64,000 bases of DNA from Bacteroidales bacterium (GTDB lineage: Bacteria > Bacteroidota > Bacteroidia > Bacteroidales > UBA4417). The DNA is taken from positions 876,440 through 940,439 of the forward strand of contig OY762227.1 in assembly GCA_963665485.1 (NCBI GenBank), written 5' to 3'. Within the stretch, counting starts at the first letter, position 1, and each line of letters opens with the position of its first letter. The position numbers and the translations under genes are program-made. Positions 2,914-62,964 of this stretch are shown here, piece by piece. Under the pieces are notes generated by a model, which searched no databases, was not told where the DNA came from, and saw nothing but the letters and a program-made list of their open reading frames with translations.

Positions 2914-3750
2914 TTAACGACTTTTATCTTTATTAGTCAGAGTATAACTGATACTCCCGGAGAAAAAAAATGGATTACCCGGCAAACTTGATTCGAGTGG
3001 CTTGTCGAGATTCAGAGGAATGTCATAATGGGGTGAAAGTTTCAATGAAAATGAGCGAAGGGTGAATGTAAACGGGAGCTGAAAGCTTAGACACAGCGGT
3101 AAGAACTTGAAAGACTCCACCTGTGTGGGTATTTCAGATTCAAGATAGTTAATGAAGGTTACTGAGTATTTTGTACCCAATATGGAAACGAATGTCGGTG
3201 AAACAGCAATGGATCCTTTTTCCCGGTATAACACGTTTATATATCTGGCTAAGGAAAACTCCTCATACCAACTGGTCCTGCCACCGCCGAAACTAAAGCC
3301 CAGGTAATTATTAACCGAAAAAAATTTAAGATTTAACCCTGTTCCTAGGTTAATTACATTGAAAAGCACCTTCTCGTCCTGTACCCTGTTAAATAAATAC
3401 GCATAACCGGGTGTTAAAGTCAATTTAGGATGGATTTGGAATTTATAGGCAATTCCAAGGTCAGTTTCAGTTATAAGACCATCAGTTTTTTCCATTCCAT
3501 AACTATACATGTTTAATGCTAAACCTGACTTATGATAAAAGACAACAGAAGGATTGAACCCTATTTGCTCAACACCATAATTTCTGCCTGAATAAATCAC
3601 ACTTGATAAGACATCAATTGAAAAAACAGCTGAATTCCGACCTTTTACCTGAGCACTGTCCGCCGGAGTATTTTGAGCATGCAAATGACCTCCAAGCAAC
3701 CATTGGAAAATCACAATGCAAAAACAAATGGGTATTCTCCTGAATTCCAT
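2914..3750 (-). CDS. hypothetical outer-membrane beta-barrel-like protein
   Basis: 278 aa with a signal peptide ending HLHAQ. Alternating hydrophobic/aromatic strand pattern throughout. First gene of an apparent operon with wecB and the DUF2334 gene. Confidence 0.55.
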   Translation of the reverse strand: MEFRRIPICFCIVIFQWLLGGHLHAQNTPADSAQVKGRNSAVFSIDVLSSVIYSGRNYGVEQIGFNPSVVFYHKSGLALNMYSYGMEKTDGLITETDLGIAYKFQIHPKLTLTPGYAYLFNRVQDEKVLFNVINLGTGLNLKFFSVNNYLGFSFGGGRTSWYEEFSLARYINVLYREKGSIAVSPTFVSILGTKYSVTFINYLESEIPTQVESFKFLPLCLSFQLPFTFTLRSFSLKLSPHYDIPLNLDKPLESSLPGNPFFFSGSISYTLTNKDKSR

Positions 3751-29632: not shown

Positions 29633-29706
29633 TGGAGCGTATGGGAGTCGAACCCATGACCTTCAGACTGCCAGTCTGACACTCTAGCCAACTGAGCTAA
29701 CGCCCC
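29633..29706 (-). tRNA. tRNA-Ala (anticodon GGC)
   Basis: Hand-folded cloverleaf GGGGCGT/ACGCTCC acceptor with the G3:U70 Ala identity pair. Anticodon loop CTGGCAG, T-arm ATGGG-TTCGACT-CCCAT, discriminator A. CCA is not encoded. Confidence 0.93.
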
Positions 29707-53700: not shown

Positions 53701-55053
53701 TTATTCTTCATTAATCCGTTCTCTTATTGCTTCCGTTTCATTTTCAAATCCAGGTTTTCCGAGTAAAGCAAAAATATTGTTTTTATACGTTTCCACGCCA
53801 GGCTGATTAAATGGGTTAATTCCCAGCAAATATCCACTTAGCCCACAGGCGAATTCAAAGAAGTAGATCAATTCGCCTAGCGAACGTTCATCAATAGTTG
53901 GCAATAAAATATCGAGATTGGGAACTTCCCCGTCAATATGCGCCAGCGTAGTTCCCAGGGCAGCCATTTCATTTACCTGATGAAGTGTTTTTCCGGATAA
54001 ATAATTCAGACCATCTATGTCAGCCTCATCAGCAGGGACCGAAAGTAAATTTTTTGATTTCTGAATATGAATTACAGTTTCGAAAAGCATGCGCTGGCCT
54101 TCCTGGATGTATTGCCCCATCGAGTGCAGGTCGCCAGTAAAATCGGCGCCTGACGGGAATAAACCTTCATTTTCCTTACCTTCACTTTCACCGAAAAGCT
54201 GTTTCCACCATTCAGTGAAATAATGCAGCGAAGGTTCATAATTAACAAGAATTTCGATTTGGCTTCCCATTCGGTACAACGAAGTCCGGATTGCGGCATA
54301 GCAGGCTGCCGGATTATCAATTAATGAAGATGTTTCAACACAAGCCTTTCGCATCTCATTTGCGCCTTCAATAAGTTCCCTGATATTGTATCCTGCTATG
54401 GCAACCGGCAACAAACCAACAGGCGTAAGCACTGAATACCGCCCTCCTATATCATCCGGAATTACATAAGTTTTATACCCGTTCTTTTCCGAAAGGCTTT
54501 TTAATGTTCCTTTTGAACTATCGGTGATGGCAATAATCCGGCTGGAAGCTTCATCGGGTCCATATTTTTTTTCAATATGATTTTTTAAAAGCCTGAAAGC
54601 AATTGCGGGTTCAATAGTTGTGCCGGATTTTGATACAACTAAAATGGCATATTCCTTTTTATCAAGCAGTTGAATCAGTTCCGAATGGTAATCCTGGCTG
54701 ATATTGTTGCCTGCATACAAAACAACCGGATTTTTGTTCCCGGTTAAGAAGCCGTGAAAAGGTGAAGAAAGCGCTTCAATTATAGCTTTGGAACCCAGGT
54801 AAGATCCTCCGATTCCAATTACAACCAGTATTTCAATTTTTTCACGTATTGACTTAGCGTCAGCTTCAATAGTGTTGAGAAGGCTCTCACCTGTTCTGGC
54901 AGGAAGATCAATCCAACCCAGGAATTGATTCCCTTTCCCTGCTTTTTCTATAAGCAGGCTATGACTTATATCGACTTCGTCCTGCATTAAATAAATCTCT
55001 TCTTCCGAAAGAAAACGTGTTACATGTTTATATTGGAATTCGAGATTTATCAT
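53701..55053 (-). CDS. pgi: glucose-6-phosphate isomerase
   Basis: 450 aa. GIGGSYLG, VVSKSGTTIEP and the C-terminal catalytic-region pattern of the short PGI class. Confidence 0.94.
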   Translation of the reverse strand: MINLEFQYKHVTRFLSEEEIYLMQDEVDISHSLLIEKAGKGNQFLGWIDLPARTGESLLNTIEADAKSIREKIEILVVIGIGGSYLGSKAIIEALSSPFHGFLTGNKNPVVLYAGNNISQDYHSELIQLLDKKEYAILVVSKSGTTIEPAIAFRLLKNHIEKKYGPDEASSRIIAITDSSKGTLKSLSEKNGYKTYVIPDDIGGRYSVLTPVGLLPVAIAGYNIRELIEGANEMRKACVETSSLIDNPAACYAAIRTSLYRMGSQIEILVNYEPSLHYFTEWWKQLFGESEGKENEGLFPSGADFTGDLHSMGQYIQEGQRMLFETVIHIQKSKNLLSVPADEADIDGLNYLSGKTLHQVNEMAALGTTLAHIDGEVPNLDILLPTIDERSLGELIYFFEFACGLSGYLLGINPFNQPGVETYKNNIFALLGKPGFENETEAIRERINEE

Positions 55054-55159
55054 TGTTGATAAAATTGAGTAATTTCCGTCTTATCATCTTTAAGAGTATA
55101 AAATTACTAAAAAAAATGCAGAATGCCATATCGTTATTGATAATTTAGCAGTTTTATAA

Positions 55160-55276
55160 TAAAAAATGCGGCCCAGTATGTGAGCCGCATTTCCCCAAAC
55201 AAACAACAAAACCAGTTATAAAAATATCTCTGTAACCAGCAGAGACTTGTAAGAATAACCTTATGTTTAACTAACC
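55160..55276 (-). ncRNA. candidate sRNA, paralog A (novel; boundaries approximate)
   Basis: Minus strand: TACTTTTG box (plus 55281-55288). Then ATCGGTTAGTT..., inner hairpin UCUCUG-CUGGUUA-CAGAGA (55227-55245), a GU-rich run, and terminator stem 55165-55172/55184-55191 plus a U-run. Confidence 0.5.
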
Positions 55277-55537
55277 GATACAAAAGTACTACCACGAACA
55301 CCAGCATAATGTTAACGAAATAAAAAGATCGTTAAAATAAGTTAAGGGATTAAAATCGTTTTTATATCCTCTACAGTAAAGAAGCGGTAACTGATATGTT
55401 ATCCACAAATTTCGAAGACAAAACAGATTAGTAAATTAGGGCTGATAAATAACCGATACAATTCCATTAGCAGGCTTAAATATTCGTGACGTTGTGGCCT
55501 GATGAGCTGCAGGGGATTGAAGAAATATAAACCGATA

Positions 55538-55653
55538 AATAAAAAATGCGGCCCTGATAGGAACCGCATTTTTTCAAACAAACAACAAAACCTCTTAATA
55601 AAATTCTCTATAACCAATAGAGACCTGATATAATAACTTTTGTTCAACTAACC
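55538..55653 (-). ncRNA. candidate sRNA, paralog B
   Basis: TATCTTTG box (plus 55658-55665). The inner hairpin UCUCUA-UUGGUUA-UAGAGA (55605-55623) is compensatory relative to copies A and C. Terminator stem 55545-55551/55564-55570 plus a U-run. Confidence 0.5.
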
Positions 55654-55803
55654 GATACAAAGATAGGGTAAGAATCAAGTTTTTGTTGTTAACGAAAAGT
55701 AAAGAACGTTAAAATTTGTTAAGTAACTGAATTATTTAAATGCCTGAGAAATTATAAATTAGTCTCAAGCTTTTAGTTGAAAAAAAGCACCCTTTAACGG
55801 GCA

Positions 55804-55908
55804 AATAAAAAATGCGACCCATGGTATGAGTCGCATTTCCCAAACAAACAACAAAACCGTTAAACAAACATCTCTGTAACCAGCAGAGAATTGATAATAA
55901 CATTTTGC
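55804..55908 (-). ncRNA. candidate sRNA, paralog C, 3' portion (separated from its promoter and first ~18 nt at 57208-57238 by the IS)
   Basis: Inner hairpin 55871-55889 and terminator stem 55811-55818/55830-55837 (GCGAC/GUCGC). The sequence is continuous with 57208 onward once the IS and one TSD copy are removed. Confidence 0.45.
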
Positions 55909-57207
55909 CACTAGTGTCCACTAAATTTTAACAATCGTTCTTTGAAATCCTTGTGTATCTATATATTGCGAGCGTTTTAGCTGCGTGACGATTTGAAATG
56001 CCTAAGTTAGGTGGTAAATTTTCTGTTACCATGAATAAAGGCAAATATGTTTACGCACAGTTGATCGAGTTCTTACCGCAAAGAGTTTTTGACGGGTATG
56101 TAGCAAAGTATTCAGGTAATAAATTTGTGAGATACTTTACATGTTGGAACCAGCTGCTTTGTATGATTTTCGGTCAACTTACCAATCGGGATAGTCTTCG
56201 TGATTTGATTGTTGCTATTGATGCTCACAGTCGAAAAACCTATCATCTGGGTTTTGGTAAAAGTGTAACCAGGAGTAATTTAGCAAAGGCGAACGAGAGT
56301 CGTAACAGTAAGATATTTGAAGAGTTTGCATACCATCTTATTGATGTTGCAAGAAGGAAACGAGCTAATGATGATTTCGAGATTAAGGGTAAAGTCTATG
56401 CATTTGACTCTTCTACTATCGATCTCTGCCTGAATGTATTTTGGTGGGCCAAATTTCGTAAAGCAAAGGGAGGAATAAAACTCCATACACTTTATGACAT
56501 TTCCACACAAATCCCAGCATTCATACACGTTACAGCAGCATCCGTAAATGATGTAAACGCAATGGATGTAATTCCTTACGAAACTGAAGCATACTATATT
56601 TTCGACCGAGGTTACGTTGATTATACCAGACTCAATAAAATCACCAATCACTCAGCATATTTTGTGATAAGAGCTAAATCTAATCTCAATTTTACGAGAA
56701 TGTACTCTAATAGAATTGATAAAACTAAAGGTGTTCAATGCGATCAGATTGGGAAACTAGCAGGGTTTTATGTAGCAAAACAATACCCTGAAAAATTACG
56801 CAGAGTTAAGTTTTATGATGTGGAAACCAAGCGAACTTTTGTTTTCCTGACCAATAACTTTGAGTTGACAGCCGAACAAATTGCGTTGCTTTACAAAAAT
56901 CGTTGGCAAGTTGAGTTATTCTTCAAGTGGATAAAACAACATTTAAAGATAAAAGCCTTTTGGGGAACTTCTGAAAATGCTGTTCGTATCCAGATTTACA
57001 CCGCAATCATCACTTATTGTTTGGTGGCGATTGCAGGGCACGACCTTAAAATTGAACGTTCGACCTACGAAATATTACAGGTCTTAGGCATATCCCTACT
57101 TGATAAAACGCCTGTAAAACAGCTGTTTACAAATATAGATTACAAAGATGTCAATGAACTGAATTATAATCAACTGTTATTCAGTTAGTTTAAAGTGGAC
57201 ACTAGTG
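55909..57207 (+). mobile_element. IS4-family insertion sequence (1299 bp) with a 9-bp target-site duplication
   Basis: Terminal inverted repeats CACTAGTGTCCACT (55909-55922) and AGTGGACACTAGTG (57194-57207). Direct repeat ACATTTTGC at 55900-55908 and 57208-57216. A single transposase ORF lies inside. Confidence 0.9.
55998..57188 (+). CDS. IS4-family DDE transposase (DUF4372 N-terminus)
   Basis: MNKGKYVYAQLIEFLP...FTCWNQLLCMIFGQLTNRDSLRDL is the typical DUF4372 start. The DDE_Tnp_1-like core includes YKNRWQVELFFKWIKQ. The likelier start is the ATG at 56031. Confidence 0.9.
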   Translation: MPKLGGKFSVTMNKGKYVYAQLIEFLPQRVFDGYVAKYSGNKFVRYFTCWNQLLCMIFGQLTNRDSLRDLIVAIDAHSRKTYHLGFGKSVTRSNLAKANESRNSKIFEEFAYHLIDVARRKRANDDFEIKGKVYAFDSSTIDLCLNVFWWAKFRKAKGGIKLHTLYDISTQIPAFIHVTAASVNDVNAMDVIPYETEAYYIFDRGYVDYTRLNKITNHSAYFVIRAKSNLNFTRMYSNRIDKTKGVQCDQIGKLAGFYVAKQYPEKLRRVKFYDVETKRTFVFLTNNFELTAEQIALLYKNRWQVELFFKWIKQHLKIKAFWGTSENAVRIQIYTAIITYCLVAIAGHDLKIERSTYEILQVLGISLLDKTPVKQLFTNIDYKDVNELNYNQLLFS

Positions 57208-57488
57208 ACATTTTGCTCAACTAACCGATACAAAAGTAATATCATGTATCCCGGTGGGATGTTAACGAAAGTAAAAGAACGTTAAATAATGTTAAGCAAG
57301 TATATAACTGATGGCTAGGCACTATAAATTTGCAGGAGTTATAACGCCGGTTTGCTGTAAGATATAGGATCAGGCGCAAGCCGGTAAGTGCAAAAGGACC
57401 GAAGTACAGTTATTTCCATATAGTTGTTAATTCAGGATTCAATCTACCTGCTGTTAACAGGATAGAATTAAAAACATATACCAAGCGT

Positions 57489-59054
57489 GTGAAGAAGCAA
57501 TTACTTGTTTTATTAATAGTGATCATGTCAGTCGCAATGTCTGTATTTATAGGCATTCAGGTATACTGGATCAAGAATTCACTGCAACTCAGGGAAGCCA
57601 ACTTCAGGCGCAGTATCGACGATGCTGTAAATGGCGCATTATTAAAGCTCGAAGCAATTGAACTTTCCCGACGTACCACTAACCGATCACTAGAACTTTT
57701 GCGTGACACAAGTGTGATACAAATGAATGCATCCGGTATACAAAATATTTCTAATTCTGATACACAAGGTATTGAAATGGCAAAACAACCGGCCCTGGAA
57801 GGCCGGATCCTTGCATCATCCGGTAAAAGCCAGGAACAAAATAATGATTCGGAGAAAAATATCCGGGGAACACTTCCTCCCGGTATTACCGAGAACTATT
57901 CAGAAGTAGCCGCCGTGCGCAAGCAATTTATGTTGAATTATCTGATGAACCAGGCGTTAGGTGATGAAGGAAATAAAGATATTGAAACAAAGATTTCAGT
58001 CGCCAGGATCGACACTTTGCTCAGACAGGAATTTGCGAACAGGGGAATCCGGATTGAGTACGAATTTGGTGTCTTCAGTCCTGACCGTAATAAGATAGTT
58101 CTTAAAAAAAACGAGAATTATCCGGATCAATTACTTTTAAAAGGTTTTCCATTTCCTTTGTTTTCGGGCAGCGGCATTGCAACGCGTGACTTTCTGCTGC
58201 TTTATTTCCCGCAGCAATCAAAATACAACCTGCAGAGCCTGTGGGGGATGATGATGGTTTCCCTGTTACTTGTACTTGTTATTATTGCTGCGTTCAGTTA
58301 TTCGGTTTTCACTATCATCAGGCAGCGTAAATTATCGGAACTTAAGAACGACTTTATCAATAACATGACTCACGAGTTCAAGACACCGATTTCGACCATC
58401 TCACTGGCTTGCCAGGCGCTTTCGGATAAAGACATTCCCCGAAGTAACGAAATGTATGCCGACTATATTAACATCATTGGTGACGAAAATCACCGGCTGG
58501 GTGAAATGGCGGAAAAAATCCTGCAAACTGCGATTCTTGAAAAAGGCAATCTCCACCTCAGGCCCGAAGCTATTGATATGCATATGCTGATTGCTGACGC
58601 TATACATAAAATTGCCATTCAGATAGAGATACGTGATGGAGTAATTACCCAGTCATTTCATGCAGAACATCCTTTGATTAAGGCCGATAAGGTACACTTA
58701 TCAAATGTTATTTTTAATTTACTTGATAACGCCAATAAATACTCGCCACGAAAACCACAGATCATGGTTTCGACAGCTGATGCCGAAAATGGTATTTTCA
58801 TCAGTGTTACTGACAAGGGGATGGGAATCAGCAAAGCCAATCTGAAACGAATTTTTGAAAAATTATACCGTGTTCCTACCGGAGATGTTCATAATGTAAA
58901 AGGATTCGGACTTGGGCTCAGTTACGTTAAATTTATTGTCGAAAAACACGGAGGCTCAATTTCAGTAGAAAGCGAACCCGGAAAAGGTAGTACCTTTACC
59001 TTGTTTCTGCCATATGTTGTTCCTGAACAAAACAAACCAGGTAAAACAAAATAG
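57489..59054 (+). CDS. sensor histidine kinase (RprX-like)
   Basis: Two TM segments. H-box NMTHEFKTPIST, N box LLDNANKY, G boxes DKGMGI and GFGLGLS. GTG start. Confidence 0.9.
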   Translation: MKKQLLVLLIVIMSVAMSVFIGIQVYWIKNSLQLREANFRRSIDDAVNGALLKLEAIELSRRTTNRSLELLRDTSVIQMNASGIQNISNSDTQGIEMAKQPALEGRILASSGKSQEQNNDSEKNIRGTLPPGITENYSEVAAVRKQFMLNYLMNQALGDEGNKDIETKISVARIDTLLRQEFANRGIRIEYEFGVFSPDRNKIVLKKNENYPDQLLLKGFPFPLFSGSGIATRDFLLLYFPQQSKYNLQSLWGMMMVSLLLVLVIIAAFSYSVFTIIRQRKLSELKNDFINNMTHEFKTPISTISLACQALSDKDIPRSNEMYADYINIIGDENHRLGEMAEKILQTAILEKGNLHLRPEAIDMHMLIADAIHKIAIQIEIRDGVITQSFHAEHPLIKADKVHLSNVIFNLLDNANKYSPRKPQIMVSTADAENGIFISVTDKGMGISKANLKRIFEKLYRVPTGDVHNVKGFGLGLSYVKFIVEKHGGSISVESEPGKGSTFTLFLPYVVPEQNKPGKTK

Positions 59055-59120: not shown

Positions 59121-59828
59121 ATGGAAAACGAAAAGATAAAGATCTTGCTTGCCGAAGACGACCGTAATCTTGGCACTATTCTTCGTACTTACCTCGAAGC
59201 TAAGGGATATGTTCCCAGGCTTTGCATTAACGGACAAGAAGCACTTGATGTTTTCAGCAAGGAATCCTTTGATTTTTGTGTTGTGGATGTAATGATGCCG
59301 ATTAAAGATGGGTTTACACTGGCTAAGGATATACGTAAAGTAGATACGCAGATCCCGATCCTGTTTCTGACAGCCAAATCGCTGGAAGATGATAAACTTA
59401 AAGGCTTCCAGGCCGGAGGTGACGATTATCTTACAAAGCCATTCAGCATGGATGAACTTCTGGCCCGTATCGAAGCCATTCTGAGACGATCGGTTAAAGT
59501 AACCGATGGTAAAACGGATAAAGGAACTTTTACTTTGGGTAATTTCGTTTTCGATTATAATCATCAAAACCTGCATCTGAACGGTGAAGATCAGAAACTT
59601 ACCAGTAAAGAAGCGGAATTGCTAAAAATATTATGCGAGCATGTGAACCAGGTTGTTGACCGTAGTTTTGCGTTGAATCGGATCTGGCAAAACGATAGTT
59701 ATTTCAATGCCAGGAGTATGGATGTTTATATCGCCAAAATCCGCAAATACCTGAAAGAAGATACTTCGGTTGAACTGATCAACGTTCATGGTATTGGATT
59801 TAAACTGGTTACTGAGAATCCGGCCTGA
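59121..59828 (+). CDS. OmpR/PhoB-type response regulator (RprY-like)
   Basis: Receiver domain (ILLAEDD...VDVMMP...TAK) and a winged-helix output domain (LTSKEAELLKIL...YIAKIRKYL). Confidence 0.93.
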   Translation: MENEKIKILLAEDDRNLGTILRTYLEAKGYVPRLCINGQEALDVFSKESFDFCVVDVMMPIKDGFTLAKDIRKVDTQIPILFLTAKSLEDDKLKGFQAGGDDYLTKPFSMDELLARIEAILRRSVKVTDGKTDKGTFTLGNFVFDYNHQNLHLNGEDQKLTSKEAELLKILCEHVNQVVDRSFALNRIWQNDSYFNARSMDVYIAKIRKYLKEDTSVELINVHGIGFKLVTENPA

Positions 59829-60762: not shown

Positions 60763-62877
60763 TTACTTTTTAGTTTTTTCCTCGTATTTGGAGTTCAAAA
60801 CTCCCAAAGTATATTCACCTTTCTGCAAGTTATCAACTATAATTTTACCTTCGGTCCTGGAGCCCTTAAGGATAAACTGGGTTTTTCCCCAGGCGCGTCC
60901 CGCGCCAGTCCGATAAAGCATGATAAGTGAATCTTTCGAATCATTTAGAAGAGTAATGTCAAGATTTTCGGTTGCTTTGTATGTAAATTCTCCGTTTGCC
61001 TTGAAACCGCCTGGAAATATCCCTTCAACTGTCCAGGAACGTGTGTCGGAAACCCGGATTCCGGGCAGGAGCACATTTAAACTATCAGGAGCTACCCAGT
61101 TGTGAGTAATACGAACTAAGGCTGAATCAGCCAACGTTTCTACATATAGTTTACAAAAGGTTTGCTTGTAGTCATATTCACCGGTGTGTTTTATGATTTT
61201 AAATTCATCGGTTGTAGCATCCGAAATTTTTTCATCCAAATCTGCCATTATTGTAGTCGGGAGAAATGGAAGATGAATGGTTTTGCATCCGTGAGCACCC
61301 GAAAACACAAGGGTATCAGTAATTTTTTGCCAGGAGCCATCCATAAACGTTATTTCCAGGTGATTTGAATTCGCATATCGGGTTGTACCTTTAAGTTTCT
61401 GGCGGACGAAAACCTGAACATCATATCCGTTTCCTGATTTAACATTAACCGCCGAATCAATTGAGAAATGAGGAAATCCCGGCGCAAATACCCAGGCGTC
61501 GAAAAAAGGGACCAAATCAATTTTGCTATAGGATGAAAGAAAATTACGCAGATCATAAGTAGAAGAATAATTGTATGCATATTGCTGCAAGTATGCTTTA
61601 ACTCCGTCAAAAAATAAGCTATCGCCCAGATATCCACGGAGCGTATGAACAACCTGTCCTCCTTTCTGATAAACAGTTTTTCCATATGTAATTGTCTGAG
61701 GGATTCCATACAAAGCGAAATAGCCGCCATCAGTTATTGCGGTTTTTTGCAGTACATCCTTAAGTTTAGAGCGCATATTGTCCTTGTAAGCTTGTTTGCC
61801 GTAAATTCCTTCGCGGTAAAGAGATTCACACCAAACAGCCCAGCCTTCGTTAAGCCACATGTCTTCTGCCGAAGCGCAGGTAACTTTATCGCCAAACCAC
61901 ATATGCGAAAGTTCGTGGGCATACCACCATTCGCTTTCAGTTGTTCCGGTCCAGGCGAAGAAGGGATAACTTACATTTGAAGCATGTTCCATAGCTCCCA
62001 ATCCTCCCGGAGTTCCGGTATAACCAACCCTTTCAAATGGGTAAGGCCCGAAACAATTTTCGAAAACCCGGAGAATATTTTTCATATTTACAAAAGTACC
62101 GGCTGTTTTTTCCAAATCAGCAGGTTTGCAATAATAAGTGATTGGTATACTTGCCCTCAGGCCATTGAATGTATCTGCCACTAATTCGTATTTGCCGGTG
62201 GTGGCTGAAATTAAATAAGTGGGAAGCGTATAGTTAGTTCTCCAGTGCCAGGTGGAGGTATTGTTACCATTATTGGTTACACCAATCAAAGTACCTCCGC
62301 TTATAGCTTTTTTATCGTTTGCAACTGTCAGATATACATCATATAAAGCCCTGTCGTGAAAATCATCAAGGCATGGGAACCAGGCTTTTCCAAGGTTGTG
62401 AGGAATGGCGTCGAAACCTACACCCAGATTAAGCGCGTAATCTCCTGAAAAATGGAATCCGCCCCATCCGCTTGGATCAACAAAAGGTTTCCCATGATAA
62501 TAAATTACAGCCAGGATGGTATCGCCTGTAGCTATTGGTGCATTAAGTTTAATACTGAGCTTGTTAGTGGAAAGTTTGAAAGATATAATTTTGGAAGTAT
62601 TAACGAACACTGAGTCGACAGCCAGGTTGGCAAGTTCCAGCTTAATAGCTGAAAGCTTCCTGGTTTTGGAAACAAGTTTTGCTTCGGTGTAACCTTGTAT
62701 TGTTTTATTCGTCAGATTGATATCTGTTAAATGGATACCATAGTGAATTGCGTGTATTGTATCGCTGTACAATACCGTTTTCCGATTTTCTTTCAGCAGG
62801 AATTGAGCAAAAACGGTATTTGGGCTGTTTAATAAAAAAAATATTGTTAAAAATGCAATTAAAAATGGTTTTGTCAT
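60763..62877 (-). CDS. M1-family metallopeptidase (aminopeptidase N-like), secreted
   Basis: GAMEH exopeptidase-like motif, HELSHMWFGD zinc motif and downstream WLNEGWAVW. Signal peptide present. Confidence 0.9.
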   Translation of the reverse strand: MTKPFLIAFLTIFFLLNSPNTVFAQFLLKENRKTVLYSDTIHAIHYGIHLTDINLTNKTIQGYTEAKLVSKTRKLSAIKLELANLAVDSVFVNTSKIISFKLSTNKLSIKLNAPIATGDTILAVIYYHGKPFVDPSGWGGFHFSGDYALNLGVGFDAIPHNLGKAWFPCLDDFHDRALYDVYLTVANDKKAISGGTLIGVTNNGNNTSTWHWRTNYTLPTYLISATTGKYELVADTFNGLRASIPITYYCKPADLEKTAGTFVNMKNILRVFENCFGPYPFERVGYTGTPGGLGAMEHASNVSYPFFAWTGTTESEWWYAHELSHMWFGDKVTCASAEDMWLNEGWAVWCESLYREGIYGKQAYKDNMRSKLKDVLQKTAITDGGYFALYGIPQTITYGKTVYQKGGQVVHTLRGYLGDSLFFDGVKAYLQQYAYNYSSTYDLRNFLSSYSKIDLVPFFDAWVFAPGFPHFSIDSAVNVKSGNGYDVQVFVRQKLKGTTRYANSNHLEITFMDGSWQKITDTLVFSGAHGCKTIHLPFLPTTIMADLDEKISDATTDEFKIIKHTGEYDYKQTFCKLYVETLADSALVRITHNWVAPDSLNVLLPGIRVSDTRSWTVEGIFPGGFKANGEFTYKATENLDITLLNDSKDSLIMLYRTGAGRAWGKTQFILKGSRTEGKIIVDNLQKGEYTLGVLNSKYEEKTKK

Positions 62878-62964
62878 ATGTTTATTTGATAGTTACAATA
62901 ACTTTGTAAAATTAATTCAATAACATATACATTAACTAAAATCAGGAACTATAAACTGTTTTCC

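Follow-up and report, generated by a model that had tools for sequence, protein, structure and literature searches.

The 64-kb stretch of Bacteroidales bacterium contig OY762227.1 analysed here (64,000 nucleotides, positions 876,440 to 940,439; hereafter the window) carries on its minus strand, between 55158 and 57296, three tandem units, A, B and C, that represent a new family of small RNA (sRNA) genes of a familiar kind; the feature is real and strongly supported. The original prediction, made from the letters of the stretch, had read the units as duplicated genes for structured RNAs, each with its own promoter and terminator and with no coding frame, and the comparative data support this core reading. 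Moreover, we consider it rather probable that the units are independent genes for trans-acting sRNAs of ~117 nucleotides (nt), which would be activated by a response regulator of the RprY type and would act through a tract rich in G and U (the G/U tract).

Anatomy of the three units

The features described for units A, B and C were all found on the minus strand where the original prediction had placed them, and the three align at 81% mean column identity, consistent with the proposed paralogy. No variation among the three is seen in TTTGTATCGGTTAGTT, in GGTTTTGTTGTTTGTTTG or in most of the upstream box and of the terminator base. Each unit begins with a 35-bp box, TTAACAnntTTTAACGttnnTTaannTTcnTTAACA, whose half-sites start at positions 1, 11, 21 and 31, followed by a 22-nt spacer and then by TAnnTTTG, the −7 promoter element of Bacteroidota. 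The distance between the last TTAAC and the −7 element is fixed at 22 nt, the sequence of the spacer is unconserved, and there is no conserved −33 partner upstream of TAnnTTTG. The box had first been described as three phased TTAAC repeats; the phasing stands, but the count is revised to four TTAAY half-sites in 10-bp phase, of which the third is degenerate in the lineage of the window. Similarly, of the proposed promoter boxes, TAyyTTTG is retained as a promoter element, whereas the TTAAC repeats resemble a site for a response regulator of the OmpR/PhoB type, not a core promoter box. The pattern TTAAC-N4-TTTAACG-N4-TT-N4-TT-NN-TTAAC occurs exactly three times in the 64 kb (55311-55345, 55688-55722 and 57261-57295), with a chance expectation of 0.00 for the exact pattern and 0.01 for a looser one.

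Downstream of the −7 element lies a predicted RNA of ~117 nt, which starts near AUCGGUUAGUU and contains a 6-7-bp hairpin with a conserved loop, CUGGUUA; this inner hairpin is followed by the tract GGUUUUGUUGUUUGUUUGG, an A-run, a GC-rich hairpin and a U-run. The parts of the three units are as follows, the third being split by an insertion sequence (IS).

55311..55345, minus strand: upstream box of unit A, TTAACTTATTTTAACGATCTTTTTATTTCGTTAAC, a candidate RprY-type response-regulator site with a degenerate third half-site
55281..55288, minus strand: −7 promoter element of unit A, TACTTTTG, 22 nt downstream of the box
55158..55279, minus strand: predicted sRNA A, ~120 nt, 5′ AUCGGUUAGUU
55246-55226, 55213-55195 and ~55192-55164, minus strand: inner hairpin, G/U tract and terminator hairpin of sRNA A, the last followed by the U-run
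55688..55722, minus strand: upstream box of unit B, TTAACAAATTTTAACGTTCTTTACTTTTCGTTAAC
55658..55665, minus strand: −7 promoter element of unit B, TATCTTTG
55536..55656, minus strand: predicted sRNA B
~55624-55604 and 55592-55574, minus strand: inner stem and G/U tract of sRNA B, then terminator and U-run
57261..57295, minus strand: upstream box of unit C, TTAACATTATTTAACGTTCTTTTACTTTCGTTAAC, flanked by the sRNA promoter on one side and the divergent kinase promoter on the other
57231..57238, minus strand: −7 promoter element of unit C, TACTTTTG
57209..57229, minus strand: 5′ fragment of sRNA C, AUCGGUUAGUUGAGCAAAAUG, severed from the remainder by the IS
55803..55908, minus strand: 3′ fragment of sRNA C, including the duplicated 8 nt
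55889-55871 and 55858-55840, minus strand: inner hairpin and G/U tract in the 3′ fragment of sRNA C, then terminator GCGAC/GUCGC and U-run

Compensatory base changes in both hairpins

Each of the predicted RNAs A, B and C folds better than all 200 of its dinucleotide shuffles (z = −4.3 to −4.6). The double substitutions noted between the units were confirmed in both stems, the inner one being UCUCUG/CAGAGA in A and C and UCUCUA/UAGAGA in B, and that of the terminator GCGGC/GCCGC in A and GCGAC/GUCGC in C. From 37 RNAs, RNAalifold recovered the inner hairpin and the terminator. Covariation was assessed on 57 distinct RNAs from close homologues, with 500 shuffles and slid partners as controls: 94% of the cells were paired (91.0% when shuffled; 30-56% with partners slid), changes on both sides occurred in 9 pairs (6.1 shuffled; 2-6 slid) and in 44 cells (17.6±3.2 shuffled, with none of the 500 shuffles reaching 44; 2-21 slid), and the covariation score was 0.232 (0.171 shuffled; at most 0.105 slid). 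In the terminator helix, 98.6% of the cells were paired and double changes were found in four pairs. Among the pair types observed were UA (36), CG (14) and UG (6) in the inner stem, GC (37) and AU (6) at the closing pair, and GC (34), GU (16) and AU (7) in the terminator. As the counts and the score of the 57 RNAs exceed the shuffled and slid controls, the compensatory change claimed for both hairpins of the window holds across species. Two additional helices, P1 and a long-range pairing between the 5′ region and the G/U tract, were rejected, since neither has compensatory support.

A near-invariant ATG was found only inside the terminator arm, at a distance of 23-34 nt from the 3′ end that changes by increments not divisible by three, and 19 of the 57 RNAs carry another ATG. 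The terminator-arm ATG thus keeps no frame in the 57 RNAs, in agreement with the proposed lack of a conserved reading frame.

The inner hairpin itself appeared terminator-like in the scan in A (55246-55226) and C (55889-55871), where on the minus strand AUAUUUUU or a run like it comes next; the terminator finder stopped at the inner hairpin in ~10 homologues. An RNA of ~55 nt that does not contain the G/U tract could arise by early termination at this hairpin.

Homologues and conserved gene order

When one genome per species was scanned with the pattern, the true homologues were confined to metagenome-assembled genomes (MAGs) of uncultured Bacteroidales, Lentimicrobiaceae and Bacteroidota, with the remaining matches being due to chance and devoid of every other feature of the units. 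Via a profile search, 38 units were located in 19 genome loci, in tandem arrays of one to four. Nearly all of the 19 loci share one gene order, in which a regulator and a kinase are transcribed away from the sRNA array, and the array is followed by pgi, a cytidylate-kinase-like gene and an ABC ATPase. The location between pgi and a two-component system, as first proposed for the window, was correct and can be refined, in that the two-component system is RprXY-like and the probable regulator of the array. The neighbouring features in the window are as follows.

53701..55053, minus strand: pgi (glucose-6-phosphate isomerase), the conserved gene downstream of the sRNAs and co-oriented with them
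57325..57332, plus strand: TAAATTTG, candidate −7 element for the divergently transcribed kinase/regulator operon, at 29 nt from box C (far end)
57489..59054, plus strand: sensor histidine kinase (HisKA and HATPase_c), RprX-like by position and transcribed away from the sRNA array
59121..59828, plus strand: OmpR-family response regulator, best NCBIfam match RprY (NF051850) at 320.2 bits

The paralogues A, B and C are each closer to orthologues in other MAGs than to one another, and therefore the triplication predates those species. Multi-copy arrays were present only where the regulator is at least ~92% identical to that of the window, while more distant loci harbour one copy; in the lineage of the window, one ancestral gene was amplified to give three paralogues, whose conservation extends across species. 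No match to the units was found among 72,556 plasmid and 50,697 phage records, and the units occupy one syntenic position in many species; they are thus very unlikely to be fragments of a known repeat or mobile element, an origin that the original prediction had itself listed among those that would count against it. Three loci (L003, L036 and L072) carry orphan units located away from the two-component system, with the box kept. Two of these orphan sRNA copies (L036, 1094-1288; L072, 4118-4313), whose boxes are intact, lie in distinct surroundings: one between glutathione peroxidase-MarR and a group consisting of a receiver-only regulator, Rrf2, ScdA/hemerythrin and NorB (nitrosative/oxidative stress genes), and the other between a PD-(D/E)XK nuclease and a TOTE-type primase-helicase (a defence island).

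In most loci pgi follows the last terminator by 60-150 nt in the same orientation, down to a pgi identity of 52-60%. A promoter-like motif located ~25-35 nt upstream of the pgi start is conserved in many loci (for example L088, L100 and L127; ~55090-55110 in the window) and reads TACTTTCG or ATCTTCGT in distant classes and ATACTCTC or similar in the clade of the window. Its position, past the sRNA terminator but ahead of the pgi coding region, suggests a slightly atypical promoter dedicated to pgi. Genes of central carbon metabolism recur beside the kinase/regulator operon, namely pgi, fructose-1,6-bisphosphatase and phosphoglycerate kinase (L082, 3682-4686; L080, 10204-11460; pgi in most loci), which may be a coincidence or a hint at the physiological role. 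In addition, three tandem repeats of ~135 bp, each consisting of GGTTGATTTGTTGATTTGTTGAGTCGTTGAGTCGATG and then a GC-rich hairpin, follow the sRNA terminator in a Lentimicrobiaceae locus (L082, ~600-1100; also L090).

A wider family defined by the upstream box

Other loci were reached via regulator homologues (72-81% identity); there, part or all of the RNA body has given way to different sequence, yet box, −7 element, terminator and a G/U-rich stretch are retained, and conservation is higher in the box than in the RNA body. A metagenome scan with the box alone returned at least 120 stretches. Among the matches listed, ~100 adjoin an RprX-like kinase, an RprY-like regulator (56-97% identical to that of the window) or pgi in the same arrangement, and the remaining ones are mostly low-complexity TTTAACGTT repeats or coding coincidences. 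When pooled, the non-redundant units number at least 131, and their RNA bodies are divergent. In the 131 units among the matches listed, the spacer between the box and the −7 element measures 22 nt in 124, and the RNA has a median length of 117 nt (range 47-145). The 20 nt preceding the terminator stem are 81% G+U, as compared with 55% elsewhere, and are free of C in 96 of the 131. The consensus of the box in the 124 units is TTAAC / TTAAC / TTaa(y) / TTAAC at positions 1, 11, 21 and 31; it is conserved, while the spacer sequence is unconserved. The tracts fall into at least five types, namely GGUUUUGUUGUUUGUUUGG (in the window), UUUGUUUAUUGAUU, UUGGUUUUUGGUUU, GGUUUUUGUUUCAUAG and GUGUGUUGUU, and the C-poor G/U tract is, the terminator apart, the only RNA feature that is shared by all classes.

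None of the RNAs compared corresponds to a family in Rfam 15. In gathering mode, the 64-kb window gave no family match to the units, its single match being a tRNA gene (29633-29706, minus strand), and E-value mode on the window added only terminator-like chance matches (E of 0.14 or worse); 20 representative loci with other seed classes gave no match in gathering mode. The families thus covered include OmrA-B, GcvB and the Bacteroidota motifs. The literature searched likewise yielded no description of the RNA and no link of RprX or RprY to any small RNA. Protein searches returned only proteins of uncultured MAGs and did not reach the rprXY loci of Bacteroides, Prevotella and Porphyromonas.

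The RprXY-like system as candidate regulator

The neighbouring RprXY-like system is probably the regulator of the sRNA promoters, as argued by the geometry of the repeats, their fixed phasing, the missing −33 element, the strict linkage and the presence of the box on orphan copies. With half-sites in direct repeat at a period of ~10 bp, a fixed phasing and no conserved −33 element, the units match the geometry of a promoter dependent on an OmpR/PhoB-type regulator. RprY is the sole strong NCBIfam match for the regulators of the sRNA-bearing loci, at 311-331 bits (cut-off 370). Furthermore, 17 regulators with 55-77% identity to one another have in common the invariant stretch DSYFNARSMDVYIxKLRKYLK; we align it with the recognition helix of PhoB, and its invariance fits that of the TTAAC half-sites. 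On the opposite strand, a second −7 element was found at a distance of 28-29 nt from the box, counted from its other end (45 kinase-proximal units among the matches listed; L076, L078 and L080), and the box therefore sits between two divergent promoters.

The regulators of loci L109, L204, L205 and L206 pass the RprY cut-off (372.7-382.6 bits), and TTAAC repeats are found upstream of the kinase in these loci too. In L109 (2527-2561; the same sequence in L132) the full box precedes a 281-amino-acid signal-peptide protein (MYKHPVLI...SSIAQD), with no sRNA there. In L204 and L205 the box is followed by a −7 element at 12 nt, that is, one helical turn below 22, and then by non-coding sequence containing G/U; in L206 two TTAAC repeats are left and there is no divergent gene. 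The predicted divergent non-coding transcript of L204 (~3140-3300, minus strand) carries a C/A-rich segment, GACACAAAACACAAACA, of the type complementary to the G/U tracts elsewhere, as well as a G/U-rich stretch before a bidirectional terminator.

In P. gingivalis, RprY was reported to bind its own promoter (autoregulation) and RprXY was tied to sodium and oxidative stress (PMC5706477), and a transposon screen in B. fragilis scored RprXY as essential (PMC4072883). The literature consulted on RprXY gives no DNA motif and no clear signal for it.

Disruption of copy C by an insertion sequence

Copy C is now inactivated by the insertion of an IS.

55909..57208, plus strand: IS4-family insertion sequence, 1.3 kb, which disrupts sRNA C

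The element is assigned to the IS4 family by its DDE transposase, its terminal inverted repeats and its target duplication. The transposase reading frame (55998-57188) matches DDE_Tnp_1 and DUF4372, with NF033592 at 275 bits; the 14-bp inverted repeats are at 55909-55922 and 57194-57207, and the target duplication (8 bp, CATTTTGC) occupies 55901-55908 and 57209-57216. Unit C reads as complete once the IS and either one of the duplicated 8-bp segments are taken out. The original prediction had recognized the correct third copy but not its exact boundaries: because the target duplication occurs on both flanks of the IS, the non-duplicated unit C consists of 57296-57209 plus 55900-55803. The point of insertion is 21 nt into sRNA C, so that the promoter and the first bases are separated from the remainder. 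Two short contigs that encode the identical kinase (L001 and L002) end ~25 nt past the 5′ fragment of copy C, which fits a contig break at the same repeat.

Search for targets

Of 52 start regions in the window, the best predicted duplex was that with an M1 peptidase gene (60763-62877, minus strand), at −19.4 kcal mol−1 across the start codon (1% tail of the background, −17.1). As an established target this start was rejected, its site not being consistently conserved, and it is kept as a lead only. For pgi, kinase and regulator, the duplex energies of the own seed with the own starts versus the genes of other classes were −11.9 versus −12.0, −13.2 versus −13.5 and −12.1 versus −12.2, respectively. 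Since the two sets are equal, the three mRNAs were rejected as targets, and a match between ACACACAA and UUGUGUGU in L080 was treated as chance. No complement of the seed 17-mer was found in the 64-kb window outside the sRNA genes themselves.

Apart from the predicted duplex, a motif of ATTAATTTTACAAAGTTATTGTAAC located 25-30 nt before the M1 peptidase start is strongly conserved (~62878-62950 in the window; L006, L007, L021, L038, L053, L076, L078 and others). It contains the palindrome TTACAA-N5-TTGTAA (opposite strand, TAACTTTG) and is retained even at a peptidase identity of 58-60%. The peptidase orthologue of L076 has a faint match to Por_Secre_tail.

Proposed mode of action and alternatives

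From the observed anatomy, conservation, covariation and synteny, we infer the following course for transcription, regulator binding and action of the RNA. Transcription would start a few bases past the −7 element TAnnTTTG. Because a conserved −33 partner is missing, the sRNA promoter is probably dependent on an activator, which would be bound to the four TTAAY half-sites of a box that ends exactly 22 nt upstream of the −7 element. The likeliest candidate is the phosphorylated RprY-like OmpR-family regulator of the divergent RprX/RprY-like system, which would bind as tandem dimers, activate the sRNA promoter or promoters and act on its own operon; at the kinase-proximal box, one bound region could then serve both autoregulation and sRNA induction. 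The RNA would end at the intrinsic terminator, for which there is covariation support. The C-poor G/U tract directly 5′ of the terminator (GGUUUUGUUGUUUGUUUGG in the window) would be the working part, as it is the only RNA feature besides the terminator that is common to all classes. By analogy, it may block the initiation of translation of several mRNAs by pairing with their start regions or with their C/A-rich or A-rich leaders. The variable 5′ domain with its covarying hairpin might give stability or extra specificity. A broader proposition, which we regard as conceivable although somewhat doubtful, is that the most conserved direct output of RprX/RprY in Bacteroidota is a divergent G/U-rich sRNA and not a protein gene; a single riboregulator, with a seed diversified into at least five classes among uncultured Bacteroidota, would then carry out much of the RprXY response post-transcriptionally.

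Several observations weigh against the main account. The 5′ and 3′ ends of the RNA were placed from motifs alone, and the binding of the regulator to the box is suggested by linkage (~100 loci among the matches listed) and by repeat geometry. The regulator of the window, which scores 320.2 bits with RprY and 186.8 with PhoB as the next match, is below the 370-bit equivalog cut-off. At the level of the RNA, no compensatory change was found in the P1 helix GUUAU/AUAAC, and RNAalifold pairs part of the G/U tract with the 5′ region, with no covariation either way. The G/U run had been described as single-stranded in the original prediction; folding did not bear this out, as the partition function gives the tract an unpaired probability of 0.445 versus 0.449 for the rest of the RNA, and thus no enrichment. 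As for targets, the strong M1 peptidase site is kept in ~5 of 12 orthologues, and the starts of pgi, kinase and regulator exhibit no co-varying seed complementarity.

The most serious alternative places a protein at the receiving end. RRM- or KH-type proteins have been reported in place of Hfq in Bacteroidota, and the G/U tract, together with the GGUU(A) motifs that recur in the lineage of the window (5′ end, loop and tract), could bind such an RNA-binding protein, which the RNA would sequester or deliver with no seed pairing. We judge this to be unlikely, but it is kept alive by the loop CUGGUUA, whose conservation over a covarying stem points to a sequence-specific contact, and by the recurrence of GGUU at three conserved places. 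The multi-copy arrays would moreover suit a role in dosage or titration, and the target tests gave no base-pairing target. In B. thetaiotaomicron, RbpB does bind multi-copy sRNAs, yet the top motif reported for it is 41 nt long, with no short G/U-rich motif, and the terms 'GU-rich' and 'U-rich' are absent from the text (PMC11697453). Furthermore, no protein partner is linked to the units in their neighbourhood, and the loop and the 5′ motifs are absent from the other seed classes, which share the G/U tract alone. A second alternative takes its cue from pgi, which in most loci follows in the same orientation 60-150 nt past the last terminator: the unit would be a cis-acting leader, in which a regulator-dependent promoter and an attenuator set pgi expression by terminator read-through, with the short RNA as a by-product. 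Such a role is improbable, being disfavoured by terminators that are strong and conserved (98.6% of cells paired, plus a U-run), by the box, promoter and terminator that each tandem copy has of its own, and by the orphans L003, L036 and L072 and the Lentimicrobiaceae loci L082 and L090, none of which has pgi downstream. A promoter-like motif is also conserved between the terminator and the pgi start codon, and no alternative antiterminator pairing was found.

In distant loci the box exceeds the RNA body in conservation, and boxes were amplified along with the units; this could also mean that the arrays act mainly as DNA, as extra binding sites by which the regulator is buffered or titrated close to its own operon, with an RNA of no function. 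We give this very little credence: within class 1 the G/U tract does not vary, and every class has some such tract, the RNA helices are kept by compensatory changes, and the fixed 22-nt phasing to the −7 element indicates selection on a transcribed product. Hardly any credence at all is left for the reading that the units encode a small protein or are pieces of a repeat or mobile element, despite the repetition of the units, the transposase that one of them abuts and the ATG present in nearly all copies. The plasmid and phage records hold no match, the syntenic position is fixed across many species, the transposase belongs to the IS inserted in copy C, which has its own inverted repeats and target duplication, and the variable distance of 23-34 nt from the terminator-arm ATG to the 3′ end keeps no frame.

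Comparison with known systems

Under the preferred reading of regulator-activated, base-pairing sRNAs, the closest functional analogue is OmrA/OmrB of enterobacteria, which are sibling sRNAs dependent on EnvZ-OmpR. In both systems the genes are tandem paralogues, each copy having its own promoter and terminator, and the copies share one conserved segment and differ elsewhere; control by an OmpR-family regulator, established for OmrA/B, is proposed for the units here. The two have no relationship in sequence or in Rfam, and they differ in that the conserved segment is terminator-proximal here but at the 5′ end in OmrA/B. Unlike OmrA/B, the units also lie directly beside the regulator operon, have a promoter of the Bacteroidota −7 type and belong to a phylum that reportedly has no Hfq. 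For the tract, the closest analogue is GcvB, whose G/U-rich R1 seed targets C/A-rich elements of ABC-transporter mRNAs. Both RNAs have a nearly C-free, G/U-rich tract as their most conserved part, and the tract here would suit C/A-rich leaders resembling translation enhancers, as in GcvB; yet there is no homology, GcvB is regulated by GcvA/GcvR, a two-component regulator being proposed here, and the tests of neighbouring genes as targets were negative or weak here.

In locus architecture, the closest counterparts are qrr1-luxO and cpxP-cpxRA, where a regulatory product is likewise encoded divergently from the operon that controls it, with shared intergenic sites. Lineages differ in copy number, as they do for Qrr1-5. 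Unlike the units here, the qrr genes have promoters dependent on sigma-54 and LuxO, and the product of cpxP is a protein. It is L109, of the RprY clade, that recalls cpxP-cpxRA, as its divergent gene likewise encodes a signal-peptide protein. Within the same phylum, FopS and GibS of Bacteroides thetaiotaomicron are also multi-copy small RNAs, with proposed repression of translation near start codons without Hfq (PMC11697453). FopS is 65-70 nt long, with a 5′ seed, and is found at 14 dispersed loci with canonical promoters, in Bacteroidaceae only (PMC11697453). Compared by description, the units here differ from FopS in their length of ~117 nt, their 3′-proximal G/U tract, their tandem arrangement at one locus and their activator-type box. 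As identities for the units, FopS/GibS, MasB and SnoA were rejected on locus and anatomy.

Implications for Bacteroidota

RNA-based regulation in Bacteroidota is poorly charted. Promoters in this phylum are unusual, and to our knowledge it has neither initiation led by Shine-Dalgarno sequences nor Hfq or ProQ. We know of no sRNA driven by a two-component system, like that proposed here, that has been described in Bacteroidota. The locus supplies a candidate recognition sequence for RprY, in the form of four TTAAC half-sites at 10-bp phase, as well as a candidate first-line target gene of RprY, and the at least 131 natural sequence variants can be used to define the structure and the seed of the RNA. 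Across many uncultured lineages of Bacteroidota, the family is coupled to a two-component system scored as essential in B. fragilis and carries an unusually clear candidate site for its regulator. If the proposed reading is true, an sRNA driven by a two-component system would be present in many of these lineages, and it would offer a handle on how such RNAs find their targets without Hfq.

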